A DNA stretch of 64,000 bases from Candidatus Poribacteria bacterium (GTDB lineage: Bacteria; Poribacteria; WGA-4E; WGA-3G): NCBI GenBank assembly GCA_965205015.1, contig OZ242029.1, positions 1,856,001 through 1,920,000 on the forward strand, in the 5' to 3' direction. The notes beneath the pieces are model-generated. The model did no database searches. It was not told where the DNA came from and worked only from the letters and a program-made list of their open reading frames with translations. Positions 11,133 to 27,316 of this stretch are shown piece by piece. How positions within the stretch are numbered: position 1 is the stretch's first letter; each line of letters begins with the position of its first letter. The position numbers and the translations under genes are program-made.

Positions 11133-11160
11133 GAGCGATCTTTCCTCACTATGCTATCTC

Positions 11161-11189: not shown

Positions 11190-11200
11190 AAAAAATTGCT

Positions 11201-12060: not shown

Positions 12061-12627
12061 TTAAATCATACCCCTAAGATCGGTTATAATCATTGACTCC
12101 CCATTTTCTTCCGTAATCTCCCAATATTTTTTTTGAAGCGGAATAACCTTTCCTGCGTCCGCTGTATATCCCCAAATTTCCTTTTCAATAATGACAAGTC
12201 TTTCAATGTTCGATTGTGCTAATTTCTCAAAATCAATTGTCTTCACCTTAGGATTCATATGATGAATGTCATTCCGGTAGCTGCGATAGATAGCTAAGGA
12301 GGCATTAGCACAATTTTCTGTGATAATATTTTGTTTCTTAAGTTCTGATATAAGTTGTTCCTTATTTTCAAAATTTGCCGTGTTGATATTGTTTTCAACA
12401 GCAACAAACTTTAGAATCCCTTCGTTTACTGCCTGGACCATCATGACGGTTGCAATAAAATGCCCTGCGAAATAGCATTCTAGACATTCTGTTGATGCTG
12501 CCGAAAAATATGTGTGGCCAATAAGGGTGTGATGTTCCAAATCAATACGGCGCTTTATTCTCTCGTCAAAAGTGGAGTTATCTTGTTTTTTTAAGAAGTC
12601 ACGTAACATTGATTCAGGTATAGACAT
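12061..12627 (-). CDS. HEPN-like (DUF4145-like) protein
   Basis: Helical N-part ECYFAGHFIATVMMVQAVNEG and Rx4H motif RNDIHH; visibly AT-rich compared with neighbours. Confidence 0.55.
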   Translation of the reverse strand: MSIPESMLRDFLKKQDNSTFDERIKRRIDLEHHTLIGHTYFSAASTECLECYFAGHFIATVMMVQAVNEGILKFVAVENNINTANFENKEQLISELKKQNIITENCANASLAIYRSYRNDIHHMNPKVKTIDFEKLAQSNIERLVIIEKEIWGYTADAGKVIPLQKKYWEITEENGESMIITDLRGMI

Positions 12628-12630
12628 GTG

Positions 12631-13752
12631 TTATTTCCTCTTGTTTAAAATTTGTCGTAGACTCTGGGCGATGATTTCTACCTCTCCGGGCATTAGCGTT
12701 TGTCCATTGATAATAATACCGTTTTCTCCTGCGCTTGGAAGGTCAATCGAGGGCTCACCGTCTGCGAGTTGCTGAAGGATTTCGTTCCGTGTGATACCGA
12801 GGTGTTCTGCATCAAATCGGATTTCAGTGCGGGGCATCGGTTGTCCGGCTTCGGAAGGGAAGATACGATGGACGGTAACGCCTTGGATATCCGAGAACGC
12901 TTCGTCGTAGTAGGTAACCTGATCCTCGTAGGATTGCTGTAATTTGTCGTGGTCTTGATCCAGATACCATTCAACAGCGGTAAGGAGTCCTACCAACTCT
13001 TCTTTCCCCACCTTCATTCCCCTGCCGATGAAAGGATGTGGGGGTCCGTTGAAAGCGATAGCCTCAATCAACGATTTTTTTCCCACAATTAACCCACTAC
13101 TCTGCGGTCCGTGCAACCCTTTCCCGCCGCTAAAGAGTGCCAAATCAGCACCCATCTGCGTGAAACGCCATAAGTTTTCAGGGGGTGGTAATTGTGCTGC
13201 GGCATCAACGATGAGGGGAATATTATGCCTTTTCGCAATCGAGATGGCTTCCTCATAAGGCACCCAGAGGTGTTCTCTACTGGGGTTTGCGAAGTAGAAG
13301 ATCGCAGCGGTCTTTTCCGTAATGGCGTTCTCTAACGCATCGGGGGTTGTTCCCTTTTCATCACCTATCTCTACGAAAGTGACACCAACCTGCCGAACGG
13401 CGTAATCGTATCCGACCCGACCGTGACGATGCACAATGACTTCACTTTTCATTGAGGGATCAAGGTGCGGCAATTTTTCGCGTTTATCTGAGTCAAGTCC
13501 GGTGATACACGCCGCAGTGCTGAGGGTCAAAGCAGCGGCAGCACCGCAGGAGACATACGCCGCTTCGTTGTGGGTGAGTTTCGCAATCTCTTCCCCGACC
13601 CGTTTTTGGAGTTCAATGATGTCTACAAAATGCTTGGCAGCGTCCGCCATCGCCGCTATGACCTCGGGGGGCATGATCGAACCACCGAGCCGTGTGAGCG
13701 TCGCATTACCGTTGATGACTGTGCGAATACCTAAGCGTTTGTAAATGCTCAT
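12631..13752 (-). CDS. SelA-like PLP-dependent enzyme (DgaE-like family)
   Basis: VINGNATLTRLGGS, VDAAA, FSGGK (PLP lysine), GRGMKVGKEE; 373 aa. Confidence 0.85.
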   Translation of the reverse strand: MSIYKRLGIRTVINGNATLTRLGGSIMPPEVIAAMADAAKHFVDIIELQKRVGEEIAKLTHNEAAYVSCGAAAALTLSTAACITGLDSDKREKLPHLDPSMKSEVIVHRHGRVGYDYAVRQVGVTFVEIGDEKGTTPDALENAITEKTAAIFYFANPSREHLWVPYEEAISIAKRHNIPLIVDAAAQLPPPENLWRFTQMGADLALFSGGKGLHGPQSSGLIVGKKSLIEAIAFNGPPHPFIGRGMKVGKEELVGLLTAVEWYLDQDHDKLQQSYEDQVTYYDEAFSDIQGVTVHRIFPSEAGQPMPRTEIRFDAEHLGITRNEILQQLADGEPSIDLPSAGENGIIINGQTLMPGEVEIIAQSLRQILNKRK

Positions 13753-13756
13753 TTGA

Positions 13757-13860
13757 ATGGTTATCGGAAACTATCAGTTTTCAGCAAAAGGATCTTGCGG
13801 CAGTTATGCAACTTTTATATGCTACACACTGGCTGCCGACTGCCGACTGCTGATAACTAT
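13757..13860. repeat. Heptamer-repeat inverted-repeat element
   Basis: ATGGTTATCGG...CTGATAACTAT ends with internal (A/G)TC(A/G)G-type and CTGCCGA heptamers. Confidence 0.6.
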
Positions 13861-14673
13861 CTATCCAACCTCTTCACCATCTAATTTGCCGACGTGGAGA
13901 TCGATCTCATCGCGCGACTCAATCTTGTCGACCTTACCGTCTGCCATGTGGAAAATACGGTCAGAGACATCTAACATCTTGTGATCGTGTGTTGCGGTGA
14001 TGATGGTTACGCCGTTTTCAGCATTGAGTCGACGGAGGAGGGCGATGATTTCGAGTCCGGTTTTGGTGTCCAAGTTTCCAGTCGGTTCATCGGCGAGAAC
14101 GATTGCGGGATCGTTTGCGAGCGAGCGTGCAATCGCAACACGCTGTTGTTGTCCACCGGAGAGTTCTAACGGCTTGTGTTGCACGCGGTCACCGAGTCCG
14201 ACGAGTGTAAGGAGGTCAACGCCTTTCTCTCTGCTTTCGTCGGCACTCATACCCGCGAAGATCATCGGAAGTGAAACGTTTTCGAGTGCCGTCATAACTG
14301 GGATGAGATTGAACGATTGAAAGATATAGCCGATCTTCCGGCAGCGAAGCCATGCGAGTTCATACGCGTCAAGTTGTGCGATGTCCACCTCATCAATGTA
14401 GACTCTGCCCTCGGTCGGTTTGTCTAAACCACCAATCATGTTGAAAAGTGTCGATTTCCCTGAACCGGAGGGACCCATAATAGAGATGTACTCGCCGCGC
14501 TGGATTTGGAAATTGACGCCACGGAGGGCATCGACGGTCTGTGTTCCCATCTCATATCGCTTGATAAGGTTCCGGACGCGAACCGTATTTTCCTTAGGGA
14601 GAACGCGTTGAAACTTTTCCGGAGTTTCGGAGAGAATGGCATTAACATCGCCGATTTCTGTTGGTATATTCAT
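13861..14673 (-). CDS. ABC ATPase, LolD/MacB family
   Basis: GPSGSGKST, IGYIFQSFNL, LSGGQQQRVAIAR, LADEPTGNLD, ATHD. Confidence 0.95.
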   Translation of the reverse strand: MNIPTEIGDVNAILSETPEKFQRVLPKENTVRVRNLIKRYEMGTQTVDALRGVNFQIQRGEYISIMGPSGSGKSTLFNMIGGLDKPTEGRVYIDEVDIAQLDAYELAWLRCRKIGYIFQSFNLIPVMTALENVSLPMIFAGMSADESREKGVDLLTLVGLGDRVQHKPLELSGGQQQRVAIARSLANDPAIVLADEPTGNLDTKTGLEIIALLRRLNAENGVTIITATHDHKMLDVSDRIFHMADGKVDKIESRDEIDLHVGKLDGEEVG

Positions 14674-14685
14674 TTTTTTCTCCTT

Positions 14686-14772
14686 TAGTGGTTATTGGCA
14701 GTCGGCTATCGAAAACCATCAGCCAGAGGGACTTGTGGTAGGGGAGAGCGTTTGCAGCTGCGCTGACCACTA
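14686..14772. repeat. Heptamer-repeat inverted-repeat element
   Basis: TAGTGGTTA...TGACCACTA ends with GTCGGCT/ATCAGCC heptamers. Confidence 0.55.
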
Positions 14773-14788
14773 ATCGTCATTGCGTTAC

Positions 14789-15256
14789 TTACCGTCTCTG
14801 TAGGAATCCAAAAATACCCTGTTTTTCAGGTTCGGGTTCGGGCGTTACGGGAGCGTTCTGTTGAGGGTTCGGAATGGCGAACCCGATGAAATTCCGTTTG
14901 CCAAGCTGCTGCATAAATGTAAACAGGGACGTTTCCGCTTCTTTCCGGGTCAACTGGTACTGGTTTTGGACCCCCTTTATAATCTGTGAGATGGTATGCT
15001 TACCGTCGCACATCTGCCACACATAAGTTCCGATGGAATCTAATACGATAACCCTTTTATTGGGGAGCATAAAAAGTTTACTGGCGAGTCGGATCCAGAG
15101 TTTGTCTTTCTGGGGAACAACGAGTGAGGCTTCGCCTTTGTCGTCTAGCTCCCAATTTATCAACTGGTTCCGAACAGGAAACGACTTCATGATCCGAGTC
15201 CGATCCATATCCGGACGTTTCTTAAGTTTGAGAGCGTATAAAATTCTGTTTAGCAT
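14789..15256 (-). CDS. PqqD family (RiPP recognition element-like) protein
   Basis: LDSIGTYVWQMCDGKHTISQII...EAETSLFTFMQQLGKRNFI fits the PqqD winged-helix pattern. Confidence 0.8.
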   Translation of the reverse strand: MLNRILYALKLKKRPDMDRTRIMKSFPVRNQLINWELDDKGEASLVVPQKDKLWIRLASKLFMLPNKRVIVLDSIGTYVWQMCDGKHTISQIIKGVQNQYQLTRKEAETSLFTFMQQLGKRNFIGFAIPNPQQNAPVTPEPEPEKQGIFGFLQRR

Positions 15257-15338
15257 AATGGTTGTCAGTGCGGATTTTTTTTCGCAAGAAAAACCCGGTG
15301 AATGCCACACGGCATTCATACCGTTGATTCACCGAAAA

Positions 15339-16436
15339 CTATCCGTGGTATTGAATACTTTCAGCAACTTTTTGCACGGTCGAACGCGCATCGGTACTGC
15401 CGATCGACTGGATAACATAGATACGATTAGACTGATTGCATCGCCATAGATGGAACACAAGGGCTGTTCTCTTGGATAACTTATCAAGCATCAGCACGGG
15501 ACTGAATGGCACACCATCATAGAGCCGTGTTTGTTCCCCAATGAGTGTCAAACGCTCATTATCTGAATCTGTCTCGGATGTTACTTCAAACCCGTAGCCA
15601 CGAATCGCTTTTGCGTATTTGGTACGAAACCATGCCTCTAATGGGTTTGGGGCATCTTTATAGTCGCTCAGCATCACTTCTGCGGGTCCGTATCGCTCCA
15701 CACTCAGTCGTCCTTTGTCGGGGGGTAGGGGGTTTTTGCTTGGGGTTTTTGCTTGGGTATTTTCTGCGGATTTCCCCAAGGTTATCTCACCCCTACCATC
15801 TTCTACAGAACCATTATTCTTTAGACGATTGCTTGCCAGTTTCGCCAGCCGTACTGCACTCTGAAAGGGAACAGGCTTGGCAACGAAGGCAAACAACAGG
15901 TAGCCGCTGAGCAGTTTCTGACGTTCCAACTTGTATTCTTTTGGAACCCCTAACTTAAGCCCGTAGGCACTCCACAATGTCAATGGGGCATCCCCGCGGT
16001 CTGTAATTGATTCAAAAATCCGAAGAACTGTAGGTCGCCAATTCTCCTTGAGCCGTCCCATCACCTGCACGATCGTAATTCGCTTCCCAGTGTGAAAAAT
16101 CAGCCCATTCGCACGAATGCTCCCTTTCCAACTAAAACCGAGAACCGTCCGTCCCTTAAAGAATTCCTCTTCTTTGATGAGATTAACGTTCCGACGAAAG
16201 GAGAGCTCGGTGCCTTTCTTATACGTCTTGCGAATCAGCTTGAAATATTCGTCAAGCGTTGCGTGGAGATCCGGCTTTTTGCGTCGGGTATGCGCCCATT
16301 TGAGTTCAAGGCGAGGCATCTCTGGATCGTCAAGCCGGAGATATCCTGTTTTCTGATCTCCGCTGAGTCCACTCAGTTCCCACGTCGTGGGGATTTCCAG
16401 TTCTATGCCTGCCCACCCAAAAACAGTCCATTCCAT
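15339..16436 (-). CDS. Hypothetical protein with two similar halves and an in-frame REP-derived insertion
   Basis: FGWAGIELEIPTTW...GYLRL versus WSAYGLKLGVPKEY...GYLLF; co-oriented within the operon. Confidence 0.75.
   Translation of the reverse strand: MEWTVFGWAGIELEIPTTWELSGLSGDQKTGYLRLDDPEMPRLELKWAHTRRKKPDLHATLDEYFKLIRKTYKKGTELSFRRNVNLIKEEEFFKGRTVLGFSWKGSIRANGLIFHTGKRITIVQVMGRLKENWRPTVLRIFESITDRGDAPLTLWSAYGLKLGVPKEYKLERQKLLSGYLLFAFVAKPVPFQSAVRLAKLASNRLKNNGSVEDGRGEITLGKSAENTQAKTPSKNPLPPDKGRLSVERYGPAEVMLSDYKDAPNPLEAWFRTKYAKAIRGYGFEVTSETDSDNERLTLIGEQTRLYDGVPFSPVLMLDKLSKRTALVFHLWRCNQSNRIYVIQSIGSTDARSTVQKVAESIQYHG
15725..15796. repeat. 72-bp composite REP inside a CDS
   Basis: GTAGGGG...CCCCTAC arms enclosing two TTTTTGCTTGGG modules; length equals 24 codons. 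Confidence 0.7.
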
Positions 16437-16443
16437 TTTTTTA

Positions 16444-16761
16444 TAGTTGTCAGTTATCAGTTGTCAGTTATCAGTTAAGAGAAGGTCCTGTTAAACGAAA
16501 ACTAATGGCTATTCCTAAGTTCTGAGTTTTTTCAGCAAGGCGGTTAACATTTTCTTCACATTGATATTCAAATGAATGATTATCGGTTTTAATAGTTGTT
16601 GGTTCGGTTTTTTCTTGCGAAAAAACCTTTTAGTTGTCAACTGTCAATCCAGAGGGTATCTTGTAACAATCTTCCCGGGTGTTGGAATATTCCAAGTTTT
16701 CGGTGAATTGTTACCCAACACCTCTTGTAACTGACAACTGACAACTGATAACTGACAACTA
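16444..16761. mobile_element. MITE-like element with about 33-bp heptameric terminal inverted repeats
   Basis: TAGTTGTCAGTTATCAGTTGTCAGTT(A/G)TCAGTTA at both ends in inverted orientation; TTA on both flanks. Confidence 0.55.
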
Positions 16762-18750
16762 TTAAAACGGTTTGACGATTACGGCTTTAGAGACAAGCGC
16801 AATAGCCACGGTTCCCATACCAATGAGACCGACACCGCAGGCAAATCCTGCTGCAAGTACCGGGTTGTACATATACCAACGCCGCATCCCAAATCGCTTG
16901 ATCATGTAAAACCGTCCAATAACTGCACCGAGCAGCCGTGTAACCATACTTCCTGGATCCGCGCCGATGCCACCAACAATACCGTAGAACCACATGGAGG
17001 GGAGTTTAAATACCCACAACATCCCGTAGATTGCAAGGCTTCCGGTAAACCCGGCGGCCACATAATCCCCTCGAATTGCTTGCAGCATTTGGCTGTTTCC
17101 ATCCCGCAGCGACGTTTTCCAGAGACACTCATTTGTGGCGTTAATCGGCCACATCATCTGTGCGAATGGATACTGCGCACTGGGGATCGGTGCAATCTTC
17201 CAGATAAAGTGCAGCACCACAATTCCACTGACGACCAGAATCGGCATAATCAACAGTGTACCGGCGAGATTTGACGTGAAGGTCGTTCCTGTCAATTCAA
17301 GGACTCGCCAACTCTGTGTGCCGCGCCCGTAATCTTCGTCGGGTAATGGTGCGAACCAGATATCGACCTCTTCATAGCGACTCAAAATGAAGGTAATTTC
17401 GTGTAGATACGGTATCTCAAAGAGGTCGCGTCCCAGCACACCGAAGGTCCGTGCGGTAATATACGAATTGATCGGTGTATACAGGAAAGCGTAACCTAAC
17501 AGGAAACTCAGCGGGAAATTCGGGACCATCCAGTGAATAAGCCATACAAATCCACCCATACCGATGAGCCACATTAATCCCATCAACCATATCGGGAAAT
17601 CACCACGGTTCGGAGGCGGAGCGAAGGTGCCGCGCTCGCCTGCGGTTTTCTGAGCCCTCCGCATTTTAAAGAGCATCGGAATTGAAGCCGCCATCCCTAC
17701 GATTGCGAAACTAAAGGATTTCCCCATGCCGCAACTAATCCAGAAATCCAGTCCGTTGAACAAGCCGACACCCCGGACATCCAAACCCGGCGTCCACTGA
17801 TGGAGAATCTCATACCGGTACAGAATTTGTGGGTTCAAGATAAATTGCGTTGCCATTGCGGCAATGAATTCTGTCATCACAATCGGGAACGGCAACACGA
17901 ACCCGAAGAGCATTTGTCCAAAATCGGTTCGGAACGCGAAAACACCCGTCGGCGCGAAACCTTCGATACTCTGTGTGAAATCTATCCACGGGATCTTCAG
18001 AATCTGAATCGGTTGGCTCATCATCACACCGGTGAGTGAAGGCACACCGATATAGAGGAACCCCCAAATGAGTCCTGCCATAGAGCCGATAGAGAAGACC
18101 CGCCATCGCCAGGTTTCTTCTTTACCTGTCGTTTCTGCAAGCGCCGTTGCCCCCTGCGCACTAATCGGTGCCATCGGATAGGGGAGGCGTTCAAGGTCTG
18201 CCGTAAGTCGGAACAGAATATACTGCCCACTGACAAAACGCAGGGTTCCCAGTAGTTTTCCTGCCAGGTAGATACCGATAGGCAGAAACCAGTCTGGATG
18301 TATAAGACTTCGCGTGAGCACGCCAACGGAATCGCCTGCCGGCACAATCCAATCTGGGATTTTGTCGGCGATTTCGTAGGAAGCTGCCTGTGGCGTGTTA
18401 ACAAAATAGGCGTACCAGATAAAATTCCGGTATTGGAGCCCACTTCCGACAGCCGCACCTGTTAACCCGAGGAGCATATAAAGCTCCTGTCGTCGGGCAG
18501 TTGTAAAGGAACGCCGCGCGAGTTCGGTGAATAGAATAACGGCAACCCAAGGTGCTGCACCAGCACCGGATTCACCGGATACATAACTGAGATAAATGGA
18601 ACCCGGCATCATCAGCAAGCCAACGAAAAGTGCTCCAACAAACACTTTAACTGTTAGTCCCGACTCAAAGGTACGAATACCGCCTTCAATGTCATATCGC
18701 TGTGCCCAAGCTTGCCATTCATCTGCTTGTGATACTCTTTCTCTCGCCAA
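16762..18750 (-). CDS. OPT-like (oligopeptide transporter superfamily) membrane protein
   Basis: About 660 aa with many TM helices, ERLPYPMAP motif; TTG start after AAGGAG. Confidence 0.75.
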   Translation of the reverse strand: MARERVSQADEWQAWAQRYDIEGGIRTFESGLTVKVFVGALFVGLLMMPGSIYLSYVSGESGAGAAPWVAVILFTELARRSFTTARRQELYMLLGLTGAAVGSGLQYRNFIWYAYFVNTPQAASYEIADKIPDWIVPAGDSVGVLTRSLIHPDWFLPIGIYLAGKLLGTLRFVSGQYILFRLTADLERLPYPMAPISAQGATALAETTGKEETWRWRVFSIGSMAGLIWGFLYIGVPSLTGVMMSQPIQILKIPWIDFTQSIEGFAPTGVFAFRTDFGQMLFGFVLPFPIVMTEFIAAMATQFILNPQILYRYEILHQWTPGLDVRGVGLFNGLDFWISCGMGKSFSFAIVGMAASIPMLFKMRRAQKTAGERGTFAPPPNRGDFPIWLMGLMWLIGMGGFVWLIHWMVPNFPLSFLLGYAFLYTPINSYITARTFGVLGRDLFEIPYLHEITFILSRYEEVDIWFAPLPDEDYGRGTQSWRVLELTGTTFTSNLAGTLLIMPILVVSGIVVLHFIWKIAPIPSAQYPFAQMMWPINATNECLWKTSLRDGNSQMLQAIRGDYVAAGFTGSLAIYGMLWVFKLPSMWFYGIVGGIGADPGSMVTRLLGAVIGRFYMIKRFGMRRWYMYNPVLAAGFACGVGLIGMGTVAIALVSKAVIVKPF

Positions 18751-18770
18751 ATTGAATGTTCTCCTTTCTT

Positions 18771-18934
18771 GACTGTCGGCTATCGGCATATTGGCTGTCG
18801 GCTATCGGCTTTCAGCGAAGAAGGTTTTCGTTTAACGATACCCTCTTAACTGACTGCTGAAAGGGTTTTCGTAGAAAACCCGACCCGACGGCTGATTGCC
18901 AATTGCTGACAGCCATCCTGCTGACTGCTGATGC
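18771..18934. repeat. Heptamer-repeat inverted-repeat element
   Basis: GTCGGCT/ATCGGC repeats facing CTGACTG/CTGACAG repeats; internal GGGTTTTC-GTA-GAAAACCC hairpin. Confidence 0.6.
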
Positions 18935-19123
18935 TCACTCTTCGCCTGATTCTTCGGTGTCGTCGGTGCTTCGTAGTTCTTCCCAGAAATGCGCACAGAA
19001 AATACCAACTATCAGCACAAGAGCTGAGAACATCTGCCATTGCCAACGCCCTTCAAGGGCGAGAACGCTGAACAGCCATAAGAAGGTGCCAATGATAATA
19101 ATAAGACTTGCTACTTTTTCCAT
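18935..19123 (-). CDS. Small two-TM membrane protein with acidic tail
   Basis: 62 aa, two hydrophobic helices, DDTEESGEE end, GGGGA upstream; lies inside the operon. Confidence 0.6.
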   Translation of the reverse strand: MEKVASLIIIIGTFLWLFSVLALEGRWQWQMFSALVLIVGIFCAHFWEELRSTDDTEESGEE

Positions 19124-19245
19124 TATTTTAACTATGATCCCCCAAATAGGGTTCTAAAGTCCGAGTGTAAAGTCTGTAAAGTGTAACGAAAGTGAACTAA
19201 AATTATATTAAACCCAACAACTTTAGTACACTTGTGAACTTTAAT

Positions 19246-22200
19246 TTAATCTGCCGGTGTCGGTACAGGCTCCATCTGTCCTGCTTCTTCTGCCGACGGG
19301 TCCATACCTTCGGTTCTACCGCGTTCATGGAACTCTGCTCGGATATCGACGCTGAATGTCCGCCAAATCAGGAGTTGTTTCCGCAGCAGATTCAGGAAAC
19401 GTCGATTGACCCGCTTCCAAGAGGCGATCTCACCACTCTCACGATGTACATCCAACGTGATTTTGTAGAGATCCTCTTCTTCACCACCGACTGGGGATGT
19501 AACGAACTGAATAGACTGGCTCACACCTAAGTCATAAGGCGCCAACCATACCATCATCCCGATCTGATAGGAGTCTTCGGCTTCTTCTTGGCTGAACGCA
19601 ACCTGGTCCGTATAAAAGTCGCTGGCGGATTCGTCTGCATGTGCCTCAAAATAGTCCCGCATAAAGACGTTCAACCCGAGTGATTCTTCTTCAAGGACGG
19701 TAAAGGGTAAATTAAAGTGCCATACGTCCCCTTCGGGTTCTGGGAGTTTCCATTTACGTTCGATATCAGGGACTGCCATCCGTGAAGCCTTGATTGCCGG
19801 ATACATGGTACTGAGTAAAACGACAAGCATGACAATAATTGTTGCGACGACCGTTGACATTGACGAATAGTTAAGCGTCAATCCAGCGAGCCAACCGAAA
19901 TGCACGAGGGTTGTCGCGATTGCTTGTCCCATGAGATAGCCTAACACCGCACCGACGATGGCGTATACGCATGCCTCCGCAAGGAAGAGGAAGGCGATAT
20001 GCACAGGCGCGAGTCCAACGGAACTGTAGATGCCGATTTCACGGACCCGTTCATAAACGGCGCCAAGCATGGTGTTAAGAACGATAAGCGCGGCGATCAA
20101 GATCGGTACGAATAGGTTACCCATGCCGCTGAAACTCGTCATGCCAATACTACTGTAGAGATATGTGTCTTTATCACGTCCGACAAAGAAGTCAAGAGCG
20201 ATACGGTTCATGAGCGGTGCCATGATAAGGTCTAACTTATCTATTGCGCCTAACAACTGCGGATCATCCTCTCGCGGTTCCATGTTAACAGCAACACTTC
20301 GGAGGGTGCCCCCTTGATTCATAACGACTTGATAAGGGAGAATAGCGACACTGTCTGGCGTGAGATGGAGGTATTTCTGTAATTCGCCTTCAAGCGTCTC
20401 ATCACCAGTGGCACCCCGGCTCCGCTGCTGTTGCATCAGCTGATAATCGACAGGCGTAAGTTCTTCGCCATCGTTATCAGTAAGATCCTTGAAGCCGATA
20501 CCGAGGACACCAACGACAGTAAAATCGGCACCGTAAACAGAGACGGTGGCTTTCCCCATATCGCTTTCGGTGATCTTGAGCAATTCTGCCATTCCTTTGG
20601 GCAGCACAATGGCGTAGGGCCACTCCGTCGGCCATTCATTGGCATCTGCCGGGTCAAACCATTTGCCGTATTGGAGGTATCTATCAATACCGCTAACACC
20701 GGGTTCTGATTCATTCATGCCCACGAGCATGTTTGCCGCGAAGGTCAATGCTTCGCCTGTGAGTGGGTGCGTTGGAGGCGATGTATCTGCTGTGTTTTCC
20801 GTGCGTGTGAGTTGGACAAACGATTGGTCGCCGGTTCCTGAGGATTGATACCATGCGCGCGGTGCGACGACGTTCCGAACGAATAAGACGGATTCTGCGT
20901 CTACCTGTTCAATGAAACCCCCTTCTTTTAAAGTGCTACGCGCTTCCGCAAGGTCAAGCGGTTGTTCGCCTTGCTTGACCAAGAGTTCGTTTTTACGTTC
21001 CAAAAGTCGTTCTAAGGCGGTCAATGTGATTTGCGTCTTTTGCATGTCGTTCAGTACGGAGGTAAGCACCGGTTCCTCAAGTGGACGCCAATACTGGTCA
21101 CGGATGAGGAGACCGGTATAGCGCGGTGTCACTTGTGGAAGGCTCGTTCTGTTCGGGTGCATAAACGTCCGCACAGAGGTAAACGATATAACAGTAAAGG
21201 TAAGGATGACCAACGTACAACACGTCAGGATCGTCCGTCCTTTCCGTTTCCGCATGTTGGAAATACCTAAACTAAATGCAGCAGCACTCGCACTCAACCT
21301 GCCGACATCGGCTTTATAAACTTTACTGCCCTCTTGTCGGATCTTTTCGAGTTGCTCCTCGAATTTCCGGACAATAATACTGATGACGATAACCGTCAAG
21401 GCAAGTACAACAAACGCGATCAGAATAATCACAGGTGTGGTCGTAATCTGGAATGCGGGGTGAACTTGGCTGAGGAAGAAAAATACAAGTAAAAAGATGC
21501 CGAATGAACCCAAAATCTGTTTGTGGATGTTCGGGAAGCCGAAAATGAGCCGTTCCATAAAGTAGGCGAACGGCATCAGTAAGGCGAGGTAGAACATCAC
21601 ACCGTTGACGACATCGTTACCGGTCTGTTTGACGTCTGGGTATGCGCGTGATTCATAACCCCACGCGGCGCGGGCGAGTTTGAGTGCCTGTTGATAGTCG
21701 CTTTGGAGTAATTCGGTCTCCGCACGTGCAAGGTAATCGTTCGCAAATTGGTGGAGTTTGTCAAGCCGGTCACTGGAGATACCAAACCGTTTGTAAAGTC
21801 GTGAGCGGTTCTCATCGAGCCACCACATATCTCGGACAACGACGTACGGCGTGAGACGAATTTGTCCGTTTTCGCGGACGACGAAACCCTCACCGGTATA
21901 AAGCGTCGGGTTCTTCATACCGCTTTTCGTTGCTTTGATGAGAAGGAGACGTTTACCAATCTGTCCGTATGCCATTCCAACTTTGATGCGCGTGTTGGGT
22001 TCGCTATACACGAGTGCAATAGGTTCGGCTGCGGACACACCTTCCTGCTGCCACGGTTTGGACATCCCGAACTTCTCCGGCGCACTATCCGTGAGCGCAT
22101 CATAAACTTCGAGTTCCCGCAAGGTTCGCAGGTACCGTTGATCCACTAAGTCGTAGATCGTTGTAGATACACACGGAAATGTAACAACACGGCAACCGCG

Positions 22201-25200
22201 CCTACGGGTGTTGATCGGAATTTTGTTCGGAAGTAGTTTCGCACCGTAATTCCCGAGATCAGGGGCATAGACGATGTCGCCTGAATCCTTGTCAAGAATG
22301 TATGCTTCAACCTCTTGTGCACCACCGAGACGCCGTGTAGCTCTACCTTCCATTGCTAATCCGGCGACCTCAAAGTTACCCTTGTTATCGCCCATCACAA
22401 ACAGGTCTCCACGGACCCCCATCATGGTTTTGTGTTTCCTGCGGAGCGTCAAAATCGGGTAAGGCACCGGTTTATTCGGTAGTGCGGATTCACGTGCGTC
22501 AAATTCAACAACATCACCGAAGAGGTTGCAGTAGAAATTCCCGACACGTGCCGCGGTGGGCATCTCTTCATCTCGAAGGGCTTGGATGAGTAACGATGCC
22601 AATGTCTGTGCTTGCTGATGGAGGTTACCACCTTCGCGCAAATCAACGCGTTCAATCGTATCGAGGGGGGTGTCCGTTAAGACGCGGGCATCTTCAATGG
22701 TTGCAAAAGCGATGCCAGTCTTTCCGACAAGCGTGGCGACCTCGCTATCAAAAGCAATTTTACCTGGGATATAAGTCTTCCACGTCTTTCCACCGCTTGC
22801 GGAGATGGCGTTAACGAAATTTGACTCACCGCCGAGACCCGCAATCGAAATGAGAGTTTTAATATCCTCAATTTCTTCATCGGAGAAGGTGTCCGGATCT
22901 TCATGACGAAGTCGGAGCATGGCGTCCAACTGTTCACGTGTACGGATGTTATTCTTTCGATTCTTCTTTGCAGTGCGGACATCATTTCGGATGAAACGCT
23001 CGACCTCTTTACGGATGTAATCCATATCTTTGAGCATATCCTCAGAGGGTTCACCTTGATTGCGCCACTGTTCAAACTGCATCTTCATCAGTCGGCTCAC
23101 TCCGCTGAGGCCGGTGAGTTTATTGAAGTGCGAACTCAATAGCGTTTCAAGCGTCTTTCCTTCGAGTGCCGCTTTATCAGATATCCCGTTTGCAACCGTC
23201 CATTGACGTGCCATAACGGCTTGGCGAATTTGATCGTCTGTCCACTGCCAAAGTTTCCTGACACGGACACCAAAATCGGCATCTTCAGCGTAAGAGGCAA
23301 GTTTATTGCCGATGCTCGCAAACTCGCGACGTAATACAAATTCGGGTTGCTGATCGTAGAACCATCCCTTGTTGAACACCCCGAACTGATTCGACTGTGA
23401 GGAGAGGTCAATGCTAATATAGAGAGAGGTATAATACCGGTTGAATAGGTCTTGTAGGGCGATTGCCGCCTCGATCTGTCCGAGTTTTCGGTTGTATTCA
23501 TCGGTATCAATACGCAACATCTTTTCAATACGACTCTGGATGTTACGGAAACGTGCGTTGCGAAGCGTTAACATGTTATCGCGTAGAAGCACTTTGGTCT
23601 CTGCATCCAAATCGGTGTCTAATGTGGGTAACCGTTCAATGAGGTTTTCGAGTGCTACGATATCCGTATCGGCGCGATTTTTAACGATCGTTAACAATTC
23701 TTTTTCGCTAATCTGTGATGCGATGCGTAAGCGCAACGAAAGTGCTTGTTCAACTTCATCATCCGATAGGTAGTTTTCCAAAATGAGACGTTCTTCATCC
23801 AAGTATTCCCGACCTAACGTCCCCGATGTTGCGATCAAAGTCTGAATACGCGTGCGTTCCAATCGGGCATTCCGGAGTGCAATTTCAAAGATACCTTGTT
23901 TATCTTTAAGAAGATCTGCTATCAATACGGCAACATCAGTTGTATCTCCAGATTCGGCTAATCTCTGTCGCAGCTGGGTATCGATCGTGTTGAGACGTTC
24001 TATCCCGGCTTTCGACAAAAATTGACCGCCATAAATCAAAGAATCACCGCCCGATTTTCCCATCGGCGTTTCCTTGAGTCGGCGAATGCTCGCTTTAACC
24101 TCATTTTCAACGGGTTGGCTATCAGGTATTTGTGCCAGAACCTTTTCAAGGAGCTGAACCTCTCGCTGAATCGCTGCTGCTTGGGTGTCGTTGGCATCGC
24201 GTAAAACACTGCGTGCCTCTTTCGCTGTATTGAGTGAGTGTAGGTCGAGATGCCGGTCAAGTATCTTCTCAGGTGTCCACATCAGTGCAAATTTGCGTTT
24301 GTCGCTCATCTCCCAGTTTGCGAGGGTTTTGTTAAGCATCTCGATATCAGCGATGAGTTCTTGCGGAAGATCATTCGGTATTGGGATGTGCCAGTCTGAG
24401 CCCTGTTGCACCGGAATAAGATAGGCGTCATTCGGGTGCGTATTGTATTCGTCGGTACTGCCGGTCTCCACCGCGTGAATGAGTTTCTCAACCGCCCATA
24501 TATCAAGACGCGCAATCGGCAGTCCAAGCGTTTCAATCAATTCGCGCTGTGCGGATCGGCTCGTATTGAGGGCAACACCACGAACCTCAGCTAACCTACC
24601 GACAATATCTCGGAGGAAATGTGTCGTTTGCAAAGCTTCTTTCTTCGAGCGGGCAAGATTTGCTAATAAACGGCTCTTCTCTTCACCTGTGAAGCCTTGC
24701 TTTTCGCGTTTTCGATTCCTGTCTGCCTGCTTCTTCTGGCGTTCTGAAAAGTCACGCTGTTGCTCCGTAAGAGATTCAATCTCAGATCGTGTTTTTGACA
24801 AGCCGTCCAGTGTAGTTGCGAGAGAGTCTAAGTCAGACTTTACGTTGTGTATACCGTGGAAAAAGTCAGCCGGGAGATCGACAAGAACGCTCCGGTCAAT
24901 GGAGAGCAAAAGCCTTCTGCCCAACTCTTCAAATTCAAGGACATCTGTAGAAAGACCACGGCGAAGTCCGTGCATTGTGGGGGTGCCGGGTGAATCGGTG
25001 TCGGAACCGACGATATCTTGTCCAATACCTTCCATAAAGGCACGCATGCCGGCAAGCCCTTGGAAGTGTCCATCGACTGCAACAAAGAGGACAGAATAGC
25101 CGGGCCGATATTGGGGCTGACTAAAAAGACGCGCGAGTTCCATGAGGGTCGCGATACCACACGTTGGATCAGCACCGGGTGCCATGGCGGGAACGACCGA

Positions 25201-26574
25201 CATTGAGTCGTAATAAGCTGTGAGAACAATCAGTTCATCGCGTAAAGTTGGGTCTCCGCCTTCCAAAAATCCGCGTATATTTTGCCCGACACGGCGCTCC
25301 CACGTCATCTTCCCTCTTATACGAACATTAACTTGACTCCCTTCCGCCTGTTGTGCCGTCATCAAATTGGTGAGGACAGCAGCATCTTCTTTAGAAATCC
25401 AAAATCGCGGTATATTAGCGGGGACGGTACCGAACTTATTTTCTGCTTCTCCTCGAATGGTTGTGTCGGGTTCGATAAAGATGACAGCAGTGCCACCGAG
25501 CATTGCCGCATTGATATAACGAGTGCTGGAGTTAAAATCAAGAAGAACGATTGCCCCTTTCGGGATAAATATGTGTGATTCACTCGCAGCAACAAACTCG
25601 CCGGACTCATCGACTTGTCCATCGTTGTTGTTATCGATGCCATCAGTGTCATCCCCTGGGATTTCATCTGTCCAGCCATCGGCATCGTTATCAATGCCAT
25701 CTGTTGCCCATCCTAAGATTTCAGAGAGCAGAGGGATTTCACCGTACTCATCAATAGTGCCATCCTCGTCATTGTCGATGCCATCGGATGCTTTTTGTAG
25801 GTGTTCATTAAGTATATCATCGGTGATACTGGCGTCGGTGATACGATAACGTCGGGCGAGTGTTGTGAGTGTGTCCCCATCTTGGAGTTTATGCCAAAAT
25901 CCACCAATATTCGTGCCGTTGAAATCAGCAAGTTCGGCATCATCGCCGTAAAGGAGGGGACCAGATAAACCTCCTGTCGGAATAAACACCGTGCTTCCTT
26001 CGACAACTGGCGTCGCCAGAAATTGGTTCCGCTCGTCTGCAAGGATAGTCGTCTCGTCAATATGGTAACTTTCTGCGATGTCTTTGAGTGTTTCTCCTGC
26101 CAATACAGTGTGTTTAATGCCGTCTGCTAATAGAGAGGTCCGCACAAGGTTGGGCCAGAGGGGAGTGAGTTTAAAGGCGTGTAGCACATTGGCTTCCGGT
26201 GAGAGGACTTCAATGATGCTATCACCGTGGTCGATCGGCACGGTGACGGAAAATTCGCGACTTTCCACGTTCTGCAAACCGGTTTCGACGAAACGATCAA
26301 AAATGTATTTGCTTCCACTCGCAGCTTGAGGATAACCCGTTACACGACTGTCGAGACTTGAGAGGCGTGCAAGGTCCTTTCGAATGTTGCCGATAGAGAG
26401 GTCATCCCGAATCTGGATGGCTGCAGATTGCATGCCGGTACTGGGAATTGCTTGTGCGTATGCAGTATCGGATAGTTGCCCAGCGACGAGCAAAACCGAA
26501 AGAAAAAACATTAATACATTTGTGAACGCACTGAAGAGCCGCTCGCGGCACTCGGGTCTACTATGAATTTTCAT
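19246..26574 (-). CDS. Giant LysM/PA/M28-like domain protein fused to a MacB/FtsX permease
   Basis: Signal-like N-terminus; SRVTGYP; two LysM-like repeats; three DGIDNxxDG repeats; M28-like LTAYYDS...PGAD; TM bundle; FtsX motif ERVREIGIYSSVGLAP...FLAEA. Confidence 0.85.
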   Translation of the reverse strand: MKIHSRPECRERLFSAFTNVLMFFLSVLLVAGQLSDTAYAQAIPSTGMQSAAIQIRDDLSIGNIRKDLARLSSLDSRVTGYPQAASGSKYIFDRFVETGLQNVESREFSVTVPIDHGDSIIEVLSPEANVLHAFKLTPLWPNLVRTSLLADGIKHTVLAGETLKDIAESYHIDETTILADERNQFLATPVVEGSTVFIPTGGLSGPLLYGDDAELADFNGTNIGGFWHKLQDGDTLTTLARRYRITDASITDDILNEHLQKASDGIDNDEDGTIDEYGEIPLLSEILGWATDGIDNDADGWTDEIPGDDTDGIDNNNDGQVDESGEFVAASESHIFIPKGAIVLLDFNSSTRYINAAMLGGTAVIFIEPDTTIRGEAENKFGTVPANIPRFWISKEDAAVLTNLMTAQQAEGSQVNVRIRGKMTWERRVGQNIRGFLEGGDPTLRDELIVLTAYYDSMSVVPAMAPGADPTCGIATLMELARLFSQPQYRPGYSVLFVAVDGHFQGLAGMRAFMEGIGQDIVGSDTDSPGTPTMHGLRRGLSTDVLEFEELGRRLLLSIDRSVLVDLPADFFHGIHNVKSDLDSLATTLDGLSKTRSEIESLTEQQRDFSERQKKQADRNRKREKQGFTGEEKSRLLANLARSKKEALQTTHFLRDIVGRLAEVRGVALNTSRSAQRELIETLGLPIARLDIWAVEKLIHAVETGSTDEYNTHPNDAYLIPVQQGSDWHIPIPNDLPQELIADIEMLNKTLANWEMSDKRKFALMWTPEKILDRHLDLHSLNTAKEARSVLRDANDTQAAAIQREVQLLEKVLAQIPDSQPVENEVKASIRRLKETPMGKSGGDSLIYGGQFLSKAGIERLNTIDTQLRQRLAESGDTTDVAVLIADLLKDKQGIFEIALRNARLERTRIQTLIATSGTLGREYLDEERLILENYLSDDEVEQALSLRLRIASQISEKELLTIVKNRADTDIVALENLIERLPTLDTDLDAETKVLLRDNMLTLRNARFRNIQSRIEKMLRIDTDEYNRKLGQIEAAIALQDLFNRYYTSLYISIDLSSQSNQFGVFNKGWFYDQQPEFVLRREFASIGNKLASYAEDADFGVRVRKLWQWTDDQIRQAVMARQWTVANGISDKAALEGKTLETLLSSHFNKLTGLSGVSRLMKMQFEQWRNQGEPSEDMLKDMDYIRKEVERFIRNDVRTAKKNRKNNIRTREQLDAMLRLRHEDPDTFSDEEIEDIKTLISIAGLGGESNFVNAISASGGKTWKTYIPGKIAFDSEVATLVGKTGIAFATIEDARVLTDTPLDTIERVDLREGGNLHQQAQTLASLLIQALRDEEMPTAARVGNFYCNLFGDVVEFDARESALPNKPVPYPILTLRRKHKTMMGVRGDLFVMGDNKGNFEVAGLAMEGRATRRLGGAQEVEAYILDKDSGDIVYAPDLGNYGAKLLPNKIPINTRRRGCRVVTFPCVSTTIYDLVDQRYLRTLRELEVYDALTDSAPEKFGMSKPWQQEGVSAAEPIALVYSEPNTRIKVGMAYGQIGKRLLLIKATKSGMKNPTLYTGEGFVVRENGQIRLTPYVVVRDMWWLDENRSRLYKRFGISSDRLDKLHQFANDYLARAETELLQSDYQQALKLARAAWGYESRAYPDVKQTGNDVVNGVMFYLALLMPFAYFMERLIFGFPNIHKQILGSFGIFLLVFFFLSQVHPAFQITTTPVIILIAFVVLALTVIVISIIVRKFEEQLEKIRQEGSKVYKADVGRLSASAAAFSLGISNMRKRKGRTILTCCTLVILTFTVISFTSVRTFMHPNRTSLPQVTPRYTGLLIRDQYWRPLEEPVLTSVLNDMQKTQITLTALERLLERKNELLVKQGEQPLDLAEARSTLKEGGFIEQVDAESVLFVRNVVAPRAWYQSSGTGDQSFVQLTRTENTADTSPPTHPLTGEALTFAANMLVGMNESEPGVSGIDRYLQYGKWFDPADANEWPTEWPYAIVLPKGMAELLKITESDMGKATVSVYGADFTVVGVLGIGFKDLTDNDGEELTPVDYQLMQQQRSRGATGDETLEGELQKYLHLTPDSVAILPYQVVMNQGGTLRSVAVNMEPREDDPQLLGAIDKLDLIMAPLMNRIALDFFVGRDKDTYLYSSIGMTSFSGMGNLFVPILIAALIVLNTMLGAVYERVREIGIYSSVGLAPVHIAFLFLAEACVYAIVGAVLGYLMGQAIATTLVHFGWLAGLTLNYSSMSTVVATIIVMLVVLLSTMYPAIKASRMAVPDIERKWKLPEPEGDVWHFNLPFTVLEEESLGLNVFMRDYFEAHADESASDFYTDQVAFSQEEAEDSYQIGMMVWLAPYDLGVSQSIQFVTSPVGGEEEDLYKITLDVHRESGEIASWKRVNRRFLNLLRKQLLIWRTFSVDIRAEFHERGRTEGMDPSAEEAGQMEPVPTPAD

Positions 26575-26678
26575 GTTGTGAAGTCTCCCGCCTTTTTCTG
26601 GTTTTTCAGATTTTCTCCCCGCCGCATAGATTCCTATGTTCGGAGCCTACTGGCGTAGTTTTGGGAGGCAATATTTAT

Positions 26679-26748
26679 ATTGTATACTATTATTGCAATT
26701 TTTGTCAAATTAAAAAAATTTGCATTTAAGGCTTTTTTAGGTTAAAAT
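26679..26748. promoter_or_regulatory. Back-to-back promoters: minus TTGACA-18-TACAAT and plus TTGCAT-17-TAAAAT
   Basis: AT-rich spacer between divergent genes with palindromes ATTGCAAT and CAAATT...AATTTG. Confidence 0.45.
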
Positions 26749-26878
26749 ATATTTCACGCTTTTGCCTCTCATTGAAGCAGAATCCTCTTCAAACTACATT
26801 TCACTGCAATACTAAAAAATTTCAAAAAAAATCAGCAGCAGTCCAACCCTAATCTTGCTGCCTGATAAGGAGCCAAAC

Positions 26879-27238
26879 GTGGGCAAAGAATCAAGAGACT
26901 CAAATACAGACAAAGTCGTCTCACGTATAAAACTACGTCGCCACGAACTGAAGTTGACACAAACAGAACTTGCGAAAGTGGCGAATCTAACACCTGCGGC
27001 GATCTCCCAATTTGAATCAGGAGCCCGGAAACCGTCGTTTAAAACACTTTCAAGTCTTTCCGATGCTCTAAAAGTCACTACCGATTACCTACTTGGAAAA
27101 GCCGACAAAAGTTACGATGATCTTTTAGCCGACCCAAAGATTAGTGCTATGTTCAAGGGGATGATGGAATTTACGGAAAAAGATAAGGAAACGCTCTACG
27201 AGTTCTATGAATTTCTTAAGGTGAAAGCCAACCAGTGA
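26879..27238 (+). CDS. XRE-family HTH transcriptional regulator
   Basis: LTQTELAKVANLTPAAISQFESGARKPS...TTDYLLG; GTG start after AAGGAG. Confidence 0.9.
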   Translation: MGKESRDSNTDKVVSRIKLRRHELKLTQTELAKVANLTPAAISQFESGARKPSFKTLSSLSDALKVTTDYLLGKADKSYDDLLADPKISAMFKGMMEFTEKDKETLYEFYEFLKVKANQ

Positions 27239-27316
27239 TTATTGTGATTTACTATGATGATGCGGCCTCCGAGAATCAAGGTAAATCAGATAATCCGTTA
27301 AATCATAGTTCAGACT

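Follow-up and report, generated by a model that had tools for sequence, protein, structure and literature searches.

The window analysed here is a stretch of 64,000 nt (contig OZ242029.1, positions 1,856,001 to 1,920,000 of the forward strand) from the assembly GCA_965205015.1 of a Candidatus Poribacteria bacterium, a sponge symbiont. It contains a cluster of six genes, which encode a giant permease-like protein, a small two-transmembrane protein, a polytopic membrane protein with a predicted OPT/YSL fold, two soluble proteins and an ATP-binding cassette (ABC) ATPase. According to our analysis, five of these genes belong to families that recur together in several bacterial phyla and probably encode most of an uncharacterised type VII ABC system. 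All six open reading frames (ORFs) lie on the minus strand and were found in the ORF list of the window exactly at the coordinates given beforehand, which confirms the six co-oriented genes described in an initial annotation of the locus. In the order from the giant gene to the ATPase gene, they are as follows.

19246..26574, minus strand: giant subunit, 2442 aa (ORF; Pfam FtsX and M28; PDB matches; transmembrane map; regional conservation)
18935..19123, minus strand: 62-aa two-transmembrane protein (ORF; two hydrophobic segments; Poribacteria-specific accessory)
16762..18789, minus strand: OPT/YSL-fold polytopic membrane protein, 675 aa (structure prediction and Foldseek; co-occurrence with the giant)
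15339..16436, minus strand: 365-aa cytoplasmic protein of an unnamed family (no transmembrane segment; single-copy core component)
14789..15319, minus strand: PqqD/RRE-like cytoplasmic protein, 176-aa ORF (PF05402)
13861..14673, minus strand: MacB/LolD/FtsE-type ABC ATPase, 270 aa (ABC_tran; intact motifs)

The intergenic gaps, in the same order, are 122, 145, 325, 19 and 115 nt. Close homologues of the encoded proteins are from Candidatus Poribacteria, and DNA matches to the stretch come mostly from sponge metagenomes.

Conservation and completeness of the cluster

For the survey of gene neighbourhoods, contigs were scanned with an alignment of the OPT-like protein. This gave 587 confirmed relatives, and 79 loci were kept (44 from Poribacteria and 35 from other bacteria), in which genes were assigned by tblastn and iterated hidden Markov models. 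The non-Poribacteria loci come from Armatimonadota (including Abditibacteriaceae, Zipacnadia and Hebobacterum), WS1, Gemmatimonadota, Latescibacterota, Planctomycetota/Brocadiia, Nitrospiraceae and Hydrogenedentes. The genes for the giant, OPT-like, 365-aa and PqqD-like proteins and the ATPase follow one another in identical order in 41 of the 44 Poribacteria loci, the other three being cut by contig ends. Outside this phylum all five genes stand together at five of the 35 loci. Upstream sequence of 1.5 kb or more is available for 31 of the 35; in 22 of these the OPT-like gene is preceded by a giant gene of the same orientation, whose end lies within 1.2 kb and mostly only 16–120 nt away.

The loci of other phyla revealed a further component, a small second FtsX permease, which is encoded beside the ATPase gene in all 10 non-Poribacteria loci that hold the latter. 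The free-standing protein has 219–280 aa and only a short loop between its first and second transmembrane segments. The gene orders observed are either small FtsX-ATPase-giant-OPT or giant-OPT-365aa-PqqD-small FtsX-ATPase.

The presence of the families was also compared across 151 Armatimonadota genomes. Of these, 127 have the OPT-like protein and likewise 127 a PqqD-like protein, the match to the latter being strong in 126; the giant ectodomain and the small FtsX were each detected in 124, and the 365-aa protein in 123. Comparison of the complete lists showed that every genome positive for the giant, the 365-aa protein, the small FtsX or a strong PqqD-like match is also OPT-positive. None of the five families occurs in the 24 OPT-negative genomes, except for a weak, partial-profile match to a generic PqqD (G109, E 6.8e-9). 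Few OPT-positive genomes lack a partner: the giant was missing from G010, G070 and G151, the 365-aa protein from G080, G104, G119 and G151, the small FtsX from G052, G120 and G147, and the PqqD-like protein from G052. The assembly of G010 is fragmented and carries a C-terminal fragment of the giant at a contig end. A divergent subgroup was noticed among the Armatimonadota, in which the giant ectodomain is recognised only at about E 1e-50 and the 365-aa protein is not found (G080, G104), or the latter is recognised only at E 1e-28 to 1e-34 (G087, G120, G147, G156).

The copy numbers of the components follow a regular pattern. A single match was obtained for the 365-aa protein in each of its 123 positive genomes, and for the small FtsX in 122 of 124. 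Two to three OPT-like matches were found in 17 Armatimonadota genomes, with equal counts of giants in most of them. In the five genomes where giants and OPT-like proteins were counted, the numbers are the same (G006 4/4, G007 3/3, G008 3/3, G009 1/1, G001 1/1). Five OPT-like genes seemed to be solitary at their loci; of their source genomes, four carry giants elsewhere in equal number, some of them adjacent, and the fifth (G010) carries only the fragment mentioned above. In Poribacteria, a giant is encoded in 99 of 101 genomes, and seven of these have two copies (~2480 and ~2560 aa). The five core genes thus belong together, in an arrangement far beyond chance. The initial annotation had suggested as much and had named a co-occurrence check, which bears it out both in the Poribacteria loci and in the co-presence of the families in Armatimonadota.

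Several variations in the layout of the loci were observed. Insertions of 1.4–4.9 kb separate cluster genes in some Poribacteria (L017, 13771-17651; L021, 7983-12889; L004, 14103-15540), and in L013, L018, L020 and L025 insertions lie between the giant and OPT-like genes. In four Poribacteria loci (L027, L028, L029 and L031, ~7.2-12.0 kb) the giant gene is followed by two tandem OPT-like paralogues. At 10 non-Poribacteria loci out of 35 (L045, L046, L048, L051, L056, L060, L062, L066, L071 and L077), genes with a prepilin-type N-terminal methylation motif and DUF1559 (SBP_bac_10) follow just downstream of the OPT-like gene. Since prepilin/DUF1559 genes abound in these phyla, and the 10 loci represent for the most part a few closely related arrangements, we set these genes aside as possibly a chance association. 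No gene for a membrane-fusion protein, an outer-membrane factor or a hydrolase recurs in the 35 non-Poribacteria loci.

The small FtsX is absent from all 44 Poribacteria loci. Genome-wide searches, for which close Poribacteria relatives of the window were used (their OPT-like protein is 97% identical in L001/G001), nevertheless revealed exactly one strong, unlinked orthologue in each of the five genomes searched (E 1.9e-73 to 4.3e-68, next best 1e-26). In the two annotated neighbourhoods, those of G001 and G004, it is directly followed by a gene for an ABC ATPase of 244-246 aa. This second ATPase is 61-66% identical to that of the window, and both are 57-74% identical to the ATPase of the system elsewhere and at most 42% identical to unrelated ABC ATPases. 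The unlinked small FtsX and the paralogous ATPase indicate that in Poribacteria the ATPase of the system is duplicated and the system is split over two loci. The window cluster, which the initial annotation had described as a candidate peptide capture and transport machine, is therefore not the whole system: it holds five of the six core families, together with the Poribacteria-specific 62-aa protein, whose gene occurs at 40 Poribacteria loci out of 44 and is absent from the 35 loci of other bacteria.

The small FtsX also clarifies the position of the PqqD-like protein. In an Armatimonadota metagenome-assembled genome (L066, 13388-14524, plus strand) a single ORF of 378 aa combines PqqD (residues 89-140) with the small FtsX (residues 251-369), which is the only fusion between components of the system that was seen. 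In 12 Armatimonadota genomes whose gene positions were compared (G112, G103, G093, G125, G143, G081, G105, G029, G055, G013, G063 and G142), the genes for the PqqD-like protein and the small FtsX are immediate neighbours; where the gene order is different, they are far apart or on different contigs (for example in G140, G149, G050, G113, G023 and G089). The PqqD-like protein is a core subunit of the transporter system, and the view of it as an orphan has to be abandoned.

The giant subunit and its partners

The regions of the giant, all encoded on the minus strand, were delimited as follows.

24895..26424: residues 51-560, N-terminal part of the PA/M28-like domain (Pfam; alignment to aminopeptidase)
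23425..24894: residues 561-1050, charged Leu-rich coiled-coil-like segment splitting the M28 fold (composition; occupancy)
21613..23424: residues 1051-1654, C-terminal M28 half, beta-rich domain and three-helix stalk (conservation; model of a homologue)
21373..21612: residues 1655-1734, three extra transmembrane helices before FtsX (hydropathy; 50-55% identity across phyla)
19804..21234: residues 1781-2257, FtsX/MacB-type module (Pfam, PDB, transmembrane map)
19249..19803: residues 2258-2442, conserved cytoplasmic C-terminal domain (conservation across phyla)

Hydropathy suggests an N-terminal signal or anchor (residues 13-31), a long ectodomain, the three extra transmembrane helices, which are outside the canonical four-helix FtsX fold, and a short cytoplasmic linker. 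The FtsX module would then comprise a first transmembrane segment (1781-1799), a periplasmic domain of ~355 aa (1800-2154), segments two to four (2155-2257) and a cytoplasmic tail of 185 aa. Pfam recognises FtsX here (PF02687, E 1.6e-12, residues 2156-2266), and the weak signals of MacB_PCD (18.4 bits, below the cut-off, and also 22.8 bits) are of the same kind. A sequence search of the PDB gave MacB (5lil, E 8.8e-9) as the best match of this part, followed by LolC (7arh, E 4.5e-8), YtrF (9o9x) and LolF. The giant is thus predicted to carry one FtsX-type module with four transmembrane segments and a large periplasmic domain between the first and the second. The C-terminal domain is 40-54% identical across phyla over residues 2251-2400 and 22% over the last 42 residues, and Pfam assigns it to no family at E <= 0.01; the best match, DUF6242, reaches E 0.1 and 12.8 bits, where the cut-off is 29.

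The ectodomain gave a partial Pfam match to Peptidase_M28 (E 6.6e-8, residues 432-515) and a PA signal below the cut-off (17.5 bits). For the M28 core, the PDB sequence search found Nicalin best (7tm3, E 1.8e-5), and bacterial leucyl aminopeptidase as well; the family profile matches the PA-M28 aminopeptidase 2ek8 at E 1.7e-23. To model the fold, we used AlphaFold2 with residues 21-826 of a compact Armatimonadota homologue (L054) and an alignment of 36 sequences. The model (pLDDT 90.1) shows a complete PA+M28 fold in its residues 10-496, then a beta-rich domain (~500-730) and a three-helix stalk (733-802). In Foldseek it matched 2ek8 (E 1.9e-25), the transferrin receptor (6e-23; VIA Z 27.7) and GCPII (~1e-21); the superposition on the Aeromonas/Vibrio aminopeptidase (AAP; 1rtq) gave Z 30.3 and a root-mean-square deviation of 2.4 over 270 residues, and a chain of the human GPI transamidase gave Z 19.9. 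For the beta/stalk region no Pfam family was found even at E 1, and a protein atlas search had no usable match for the giant.

The giants of other phyla are shorter (~1500-1900 aa). Residues 151-350, 501-1050, 1101-1250 and 1851-1900 of the window protein are Poribacteria-specific inserts, and the remainder is common to long and short homologues, so that ~800 residues of the ectodomain are conserved. Residues 1051-1654 are among the best-conserved parts, apart from the lineage-specific insert 1101-1250. The insert 151-350 contains two LysM-like stretches and three DxDxDG calcium-like motifs (at residues 267, 295 and 314), and its occupancy elsewhere is 0-0.46; that of the coiled-coil-like segment (~550 aa) is 0.01-0.31 in 15 non-Poribacteria giants. 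The LysM profile scores 25.8 bits (cut-off 20.9), but the match covers only its positions 1-25 of 43, and none of the stretches passes by itself. Of the LysM/PA/M28-FtsX fusion first described for this gene, the FtsX module and the PA+M28 fold can be retained, and LysM is reduced to a partial match in a Poribacteria-specific insert.

The two-zinc and catalytic set of AAP consists of His97, Asp117, Glu151, Glu152, Asp179 and His256; the alignment check covered all of these but Asp179. In the window giant, H97 is replaced by Y, D117 by P, E151 by H and E152 by F. None of the 20 giants compared, which come from several phyla, retains the canonical residue at any of the four, and all 20 have His in place of Glu151. 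The family consensus has Asp at the equivalent of His256, where 'YHTPnDT' of active PA-M28 enzymes aligns to 'vDTPlDT' in a low-scoring stretch. Judged from these alignments, the canonical M28 catalytic/zinc site is lost family-wide, in agreement with the earlier designation of the giant as a pseudo-peptidase.

In the records, homologues of the giant bear names such as 'FtsX-like permease family protein', 'M28 family peptidase' and 'ABC-type antimicrobial peptide transport system permease', and all named source records are metagenome-assembled genomes. No giant-OPT fusion was present among 7412 longer candidates at E<=1e-10, and none of the 120 giant homologues listed carries an OPT-like, 365-aa or PqqD segment, which speaks weakly against such fusions. 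The paralogous giants within G006 and within G007 are 34-39% identical in their periplasmic parts and 63% in transmembrane segments two to four. This divergence would fit a diversification of receptors, but an identical gradient between orthologues means that it does not discriminate.

The 675-aa protein has no Pfam or NCBIfam match even at E 10, and the score of Pfam OPT (PF03169) is not reached. With 1373 proteins at E<=1e-3 out of the 8000 candidates that were scored, its family is large; PF03169 is assigned in 5 of the 120 homologues listed, and several of those listed are named 'peptide transporter'. The AlphaFold2 model, built from 59 sequences, has a pLDDT of 81.8 and a pTM of 0.80. At E<=0.001 Foldseek matched it only to barley Yellow Stripe 1 (YS1; 7wst/7wsr; E 1e-9, probability 1.00, TM-score 0.58/0.64, 14% identity), and the next matches had TM-scores of ~0.1. 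A structural match of this kind without a profile match suggests an OPT/YSL fold in a protein too distant for membership in the profile. The 675-aa protein is predicted to have this fold, and the earlier OPT-like label holds at that level. The prediction of a complex between the OPT-like protein and residues 1600-1760 of the giant, which comprise the end of the stalk and the three extra transmembrane helices (alignments A7 and A6, locus-matched), scored 0.16 and 0.01 against a mark of 0.32, and is uninformative either way.

The ATPase has a clear ABC_tran match (E 8e-35) and intact motifs in its translation: Walker A GPSGSGKST, signature LSGGQQQR, Walker B LADEPT and H-loop ATHD. Among NCBIfam profiles, LolD scores highest (236.4 bits), followed by DarD, DevA, YbbA, MacB and FtsE, all below their equivalog cut-offs, so that the description as LolD-like remains apt as a statement of likeness. 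The window ATPase is 64-74% identical to the ATPase of the system in other phyla.

Neither the 176-aa nor the 365-aa protein has a hydrophobic transmembrane segment. The former matches PqqD (PF05402) with 44.6 bits against a cut-off of 23.4 over residues 84-145; every NCBIfam PqqD-family score is under its cut-off. Its true start is probably Met22 at 15256, which would give 155 aa, as in homologues (138-157 aa). Its placement in the cytoplasm follows from the lack of transmembrane segments and from the L066 fusion, in which it is joined to the small FtsX at the N-terminal end. No gene for a radical-SAM enzyme, cyclase, protease or precursor was found in the window cluster, and no enzyme or precursor of ribosomally synthesised and post-translationally modified peptides recurs in the 35 non-Poribacteria loci.

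The 365-aa protein has no Pfam or NCBIfam family, its family profile has no sequence relative in the PDB at E<=10, and the protein atlas gave unnamed clusters only. The family has 1804 representatives at E<=1e-3, with members of ~310-365 aa and no invariant catalytic-type residues. A CxxC motif is present in 133 and a C-terminal Cys motif in 121 of 150 representatives; the window copy has neither and contains a single Cys. It also has a low-complexity insert of ~50 aa (residues ~190-245) that is absent from homologues.

Transcription, regulatory signals and flanking genes

Contigs of sponge metatranscriptomes, mostly 90-99% identical to the window and present in four of four libraries from two studies, cover all six genes, including the ATPase gene, the OPT-like gene and the whole giant gene, and one contig spans the 62-aa gene and the 3' end of the giant gene. 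These are assembled contigs, silent on strand, level and single transcripts, into which DNA may have been carried over; they hint that close relatives of the cluster are transcribed. One bin, 12000-12516, has no cover, and no meaning is attached to this. Two further features were located upstream of the giant gene.

26679..26708, minus strand: sigma-70-like promoter candidate TTGACA-18-TACAAT (11/12), 105 nt upstream of the giant start codon
26855..27238, plus strand: divergent XRE/HTH_3 regulator (Pfam), a local neighbour and not a conserved part of the system

The number of promoter-like sites (14) is not above that in shuffled sequences (15.9 +/- 3.6), so the site at 26679-26708 is only a candidate. 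Terminator-like sites number 27, against 15.2 +/- 4.7 in shuffles. Within the 325-nt spacer between the OPT-like and 365-aa genes (16437-16761), many contigs from related strains part or break off, leaving loose ends at either side. The spacer also contains a plus-strand hairpin followed by a T-run (16606-16627). It could hold an internal promoter or terminator. The XRE gene is indeed divergent from the cluster, as first annotated; it is not a conserved part of the system, since only 17 Poribacteria loci out of 44, and no locus among the 35 from other bacteria, have it upstream.

Other genes flank the cluster. A DgaE-family (SelA-like) pyridoxal phosphate enzyme is encoded 108 nt downstream of the ATPase gene (12631-13752, minus strand). 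A DgaE-like gene occupies this position in 25 of the 44 Poribacteria loci and was not found there elsewhere, which indicates lineage-specific synteny outside the core. The 1271-aa ORF at 7317-11132 (plus strand) has no family above threshold and shows faint P-loop/NB-ARC/AAA_22 hints at residues ~213-284; its product is possibly a STAND-type NTPase. On the other side, just past the XRE gene, lie minus-strand genes for a nucleotidyltransferase of the streptomycin-adenylyltransferase family (28524-29351; PF04439, E 8e-8) and, adjoining it, a zinc-type alcohol dehydrogenase (27317-28495).

Function of the system and its relation to known transporters

Based on these results, we are highly confident that the conserved families form an uncharacterised inner-membrane type VII ABC system, composed of the giant and small FtsX subunits, a LolD/MacB-type ATPase, the OPT-fold protein, the PqqD-like protein and the protein of 310-365 aa. 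The two FtsX subunits would form a heterodimer with two ATPase subunits, as their co-occurrence (124 of 127 OPT-positive genomes), the adjacency of the ATPase gene and the biology of type VII systems suggest.

Characterised OPT/YSL members are proton-coupled importers, and the transferrin receptor and Nicalin are inactive proteins with binding or scaffold roles. By analogy, the system may be a capture-and-uptake or recycling device for a peptide-like ligand, a tentative reading that we regard as possible rather than probable. The non-catalytic M28/PA head would bind the ligand in the periplasm or cell wall, in a use of the fold resembling that of the transferrin receptor. ATP-driven mechanotransmission through the FtsX pair would move the head and release or extract the ligand, the adjacent OPT-fold permease would take it up, and on the cytoplasmic side of the ABC half the 365-aa and PqqD-like proteins would receive the cargo or regulate the cycle. 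The initial annotation had proposed a similar flow, from capture through the OPT-like channel to a PqqD chaperone, which stays hypothetical. The import direction is drawn from two considerations only, the importing nature of OPT/YSL members and the receptor precedent of non-catalytic PA-M28 folds.

The multiple copies of the giant/OPT pair, next to single copies of the other subunits, suggest interchangeable receptor-channel modules on one motor. Several such cassettes would share one small FtsX, one PqqD-like and one 365-aa protein, that is, several receptors would be served by one motor. It is conceivable, though we consider it doubtful, that this represents a previously undescribed hybrid of primary and secondary transport, in which one FtsX motor, composed of the small FtsX, the ATPase and the PqqD-like and 365-aa proteins, serves exchangeable cassettes of a giant and its own OPT-fold permease, and mechanical work in the periplasm is coupled directly to passage through a secondary-transporter fold. 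To the same doubtful degree, the hybrid may be likened to an inner-membrane analogue of the many TonB-dependent receptors that share one TonB-ExbBD motor.

A number of points weigh against the uptake reading. The type VII ABC systems so far characterised act outward, by extrusion, extraction or activation of periplasmic partners, and we know of no type VII ABC system that feeds an importer. An RRE-like domain on the ABC half fits the cytoplasmic recruitment of a peptide for export at least as well. The near-universal, mostly single-copy presence of the system (99 of 101 Poribacteria and 124 of 151 Armatimonadota genomes) looks like that of a housekeeping function rather than of an option for nutrient uptake. 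The replacements in the former active site are themselves conserved, and the site may accordingly be re-tooled rather than dead. The OPT-fold protein lacks a profile match, as described above, and all contacts between the components are putative. The kilobase insertions between cluster genes in related Poribacteria loci indicate that a strict operon structure is not conserved. Finally, Rfam gave no match at E<=1 over 11000-29000, and so no riboswitch or regulatory RNA hints at the ligand.

Among the alternatives, export or surface assembly deserves the most attention, although we hold it to be rather unlikely. In this case the PqqD-like and 365-aa proteins would recruit a peptide or protein as substrate, the OPT-fold protein would give a path through the inner membrane, and the FtsX pair with its head would use ATP to push or pass the product on into the envelope in a MacB-like manner. 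Biosynthetic and export pathways use PqqD-like proteins as peptide-binding domains, and the PqqD-like protein of the system is tied to the N-terminus of the small FtsX, being fused to it in L066 and encoded next to it in many Armatimonadota genomes; the outward action of type VII systems and the near-universality in two phyla, suggestive of a housekeeping envelope role, point the same way. Against an exporter stand the importing direction of characterised OPT/YSL members, the lack of invariant catalytic-type residues in the 365-aa family, and the 35 non-Poribacteria loci, in which no gene for a precursor peptide, modifying enzyme, membrane-fusion protein or outer-membrane factor recurs. A role in cell-wall remodelling, distinctly unlikely in our view, would have the moving dead-peptidase domain activate or position hydrolases, as in FtsEX-EnvC, and the OPT-fold protein recycle (muro)peptides. 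FtsEX controls EnvC, a coiled-coil amidase regulator; the giant of Poribacteria contains LysM-like stretches and a coiled-coil-like insert, and the ATPase scores 212 bits on FtsE. These inserts, however, are absent outside Poribacteria and so cannot define the core function. A full-length FtsX candidate is encoded apart from the system in four of the five genomes checked, hydrolase genes do not recur among the 35 loci, and several paralogous giant/OPT pairs per genome would be unusual for a division machine.

We consider it very unlikely that the system is a sensor or regulator in which the head senses a ligand and the FtsX pair relays the signal to the PqqD-like and 365-aa proteins, with the OPT-fold protein as the regulated transporter. 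The two conserved non-enzymatic cytoplasmic proteins, the conserved cytoplasmic C-terminal domain of the giant and the precedent of BceAB, an FtsX-type ABC system that signals by flux sensing, would suit such a scheme, but no kinase or conserved transcription factor accompanies the genes; apart from the XRE gene, with its patchy distribution, nothing else recurs. That the six genes are unrelated neighbours on the same strand is hardly conceivable: several gaps between them are not small (115-325 nt), but their order in the Poribacteria loci, the adjacency across phyla and the near-perfect co-occurrence of five families in the 151 Armatimonadota genomes speak against it.

With regard to known systems, LolCDE resembles the present one in its asymmetric pair of FtsX-type permeases, presumably sharing a LolD-like ATPase, and LolD is the best NCBIfam match. 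The scores, however, remain far below the cut-offs for LolD (236.4 against 307.75) and for lolCE (16.9 for the giant and 50.5 for the small FtsX against 362.45). One permease is here almost without a periplasmic domain, the other has an extra ectodomain of ~800-1650 aa and three additional transmembrane helices, and there is no Lol counterpart for the OPT-fold, PqqD-like and 365-aa partners. As the equivalog cut-offs are not reached, an identification with LolCDE was rejected. FtsEX with EnvC, PcsB or RipC is a type VII ABC system thought to pass ATP-driven movement to a non-hydrolase periplasmic effector, and the Poribacteria version of the giant, with its coiled coil and peptidase-like domain, shares the domain logic of EnvC. 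The degenerate peptidase domain of EnvC is of the LytM/M23 type, whereas that of the giant has an M28 fold and is fused to the permease. The ATPase scores 212.4 on FtsE (cut-off 264.85), and the giant and the small FtsX score 14.5 and 30.4 on FtsX_Gneg (cut-off 255). The separate FtsX candidate, at another locus in four of the five genomes, reaches 94-188 bits, against ~27-35 for the small-FtsX loci. An identification with FtsEX was therefore set aside as well.

The similarity to MacAB-TolC lies in the MacB fold, the best PDB match of the FtsX module of the giant (5lil). No MacA/HlyD or outer-membrane factor is encoded in the window cluster or recurs in the 35 loci, although such genes may lie elsewhere. 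YbbAP-TesA, a type VII ABC system in complex with a periplasmic hydrolase, is the nearest recent analogue in print (PMC12646458). Compared with MacAB-TolC and YbbAP-TesA, the ATPase is here a separate protein, the periplasmic partner is fused and has no canonical catalytic residues, and there is a partner with a secondary-transporter fold, which is unprecedented as far as the titles and abstracts found in our literature search show.

The single components can be compared in the same way. The OPT-fold protein shares its whole-protein fold with OPT/YSL transporters (YS1, 7wst), and a minority of the listed homologues carry PF03169; it differs in its low identity, in the absence of a Pfam OPT match and in being always paired with a giant FtsX protein. 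The head of the giant has the PA+M28 fold with lost catalytic residues that is seen in the transferrin receptor and Nicalin, GCPII being an active relative. The head of the giant differs in being bacterial and part of an ABC permease, and where the transferrin receptor has a helical dimerisation domain, it is followed by a beta-rich domain and a helical stalk. The PqqD-like protein resembles PqqD/RRE domains, with PF05402 above the cut-off, but no maturation enzyme or precursor gene accompanies it in the cluster, and here it is a transporter subunit, fused to FtsX in L066. A full-text literature search, judged by titles and abstracts, found no paper on this combination of components. Together with the Lol and FtsEX scores, this agrees with the initial annotation, which knew of no characterised equivalent.

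Type VII ABC systems are few, and each of them runs a key process of the envelope: lipoprotein sorting, cell division, efflux or membrane clean-up. The system described here appears to be a further, apparently unstudied member, in which a built-in peptidase-like head without the catalytic residues is combined with an RRE-like subunit and with an obligate partner of secondary-transporter fold. Its near-universal presence in Poribacteria, its frequency in Armatimonadota and its occurrence in WS1, Gemmatimonadota, Latescibacterota, Planctomycetota and others suggest that it probably has a basic role in these little-known bacteria. If ATP-driven mechanics do feed or gate an OPT-type permease, this would represent a new coupling of primary and secondary transport, and it would provide the first functional context for the bacterial OPT-like proteins and for the 365-aa family with its ~1800 representatives.

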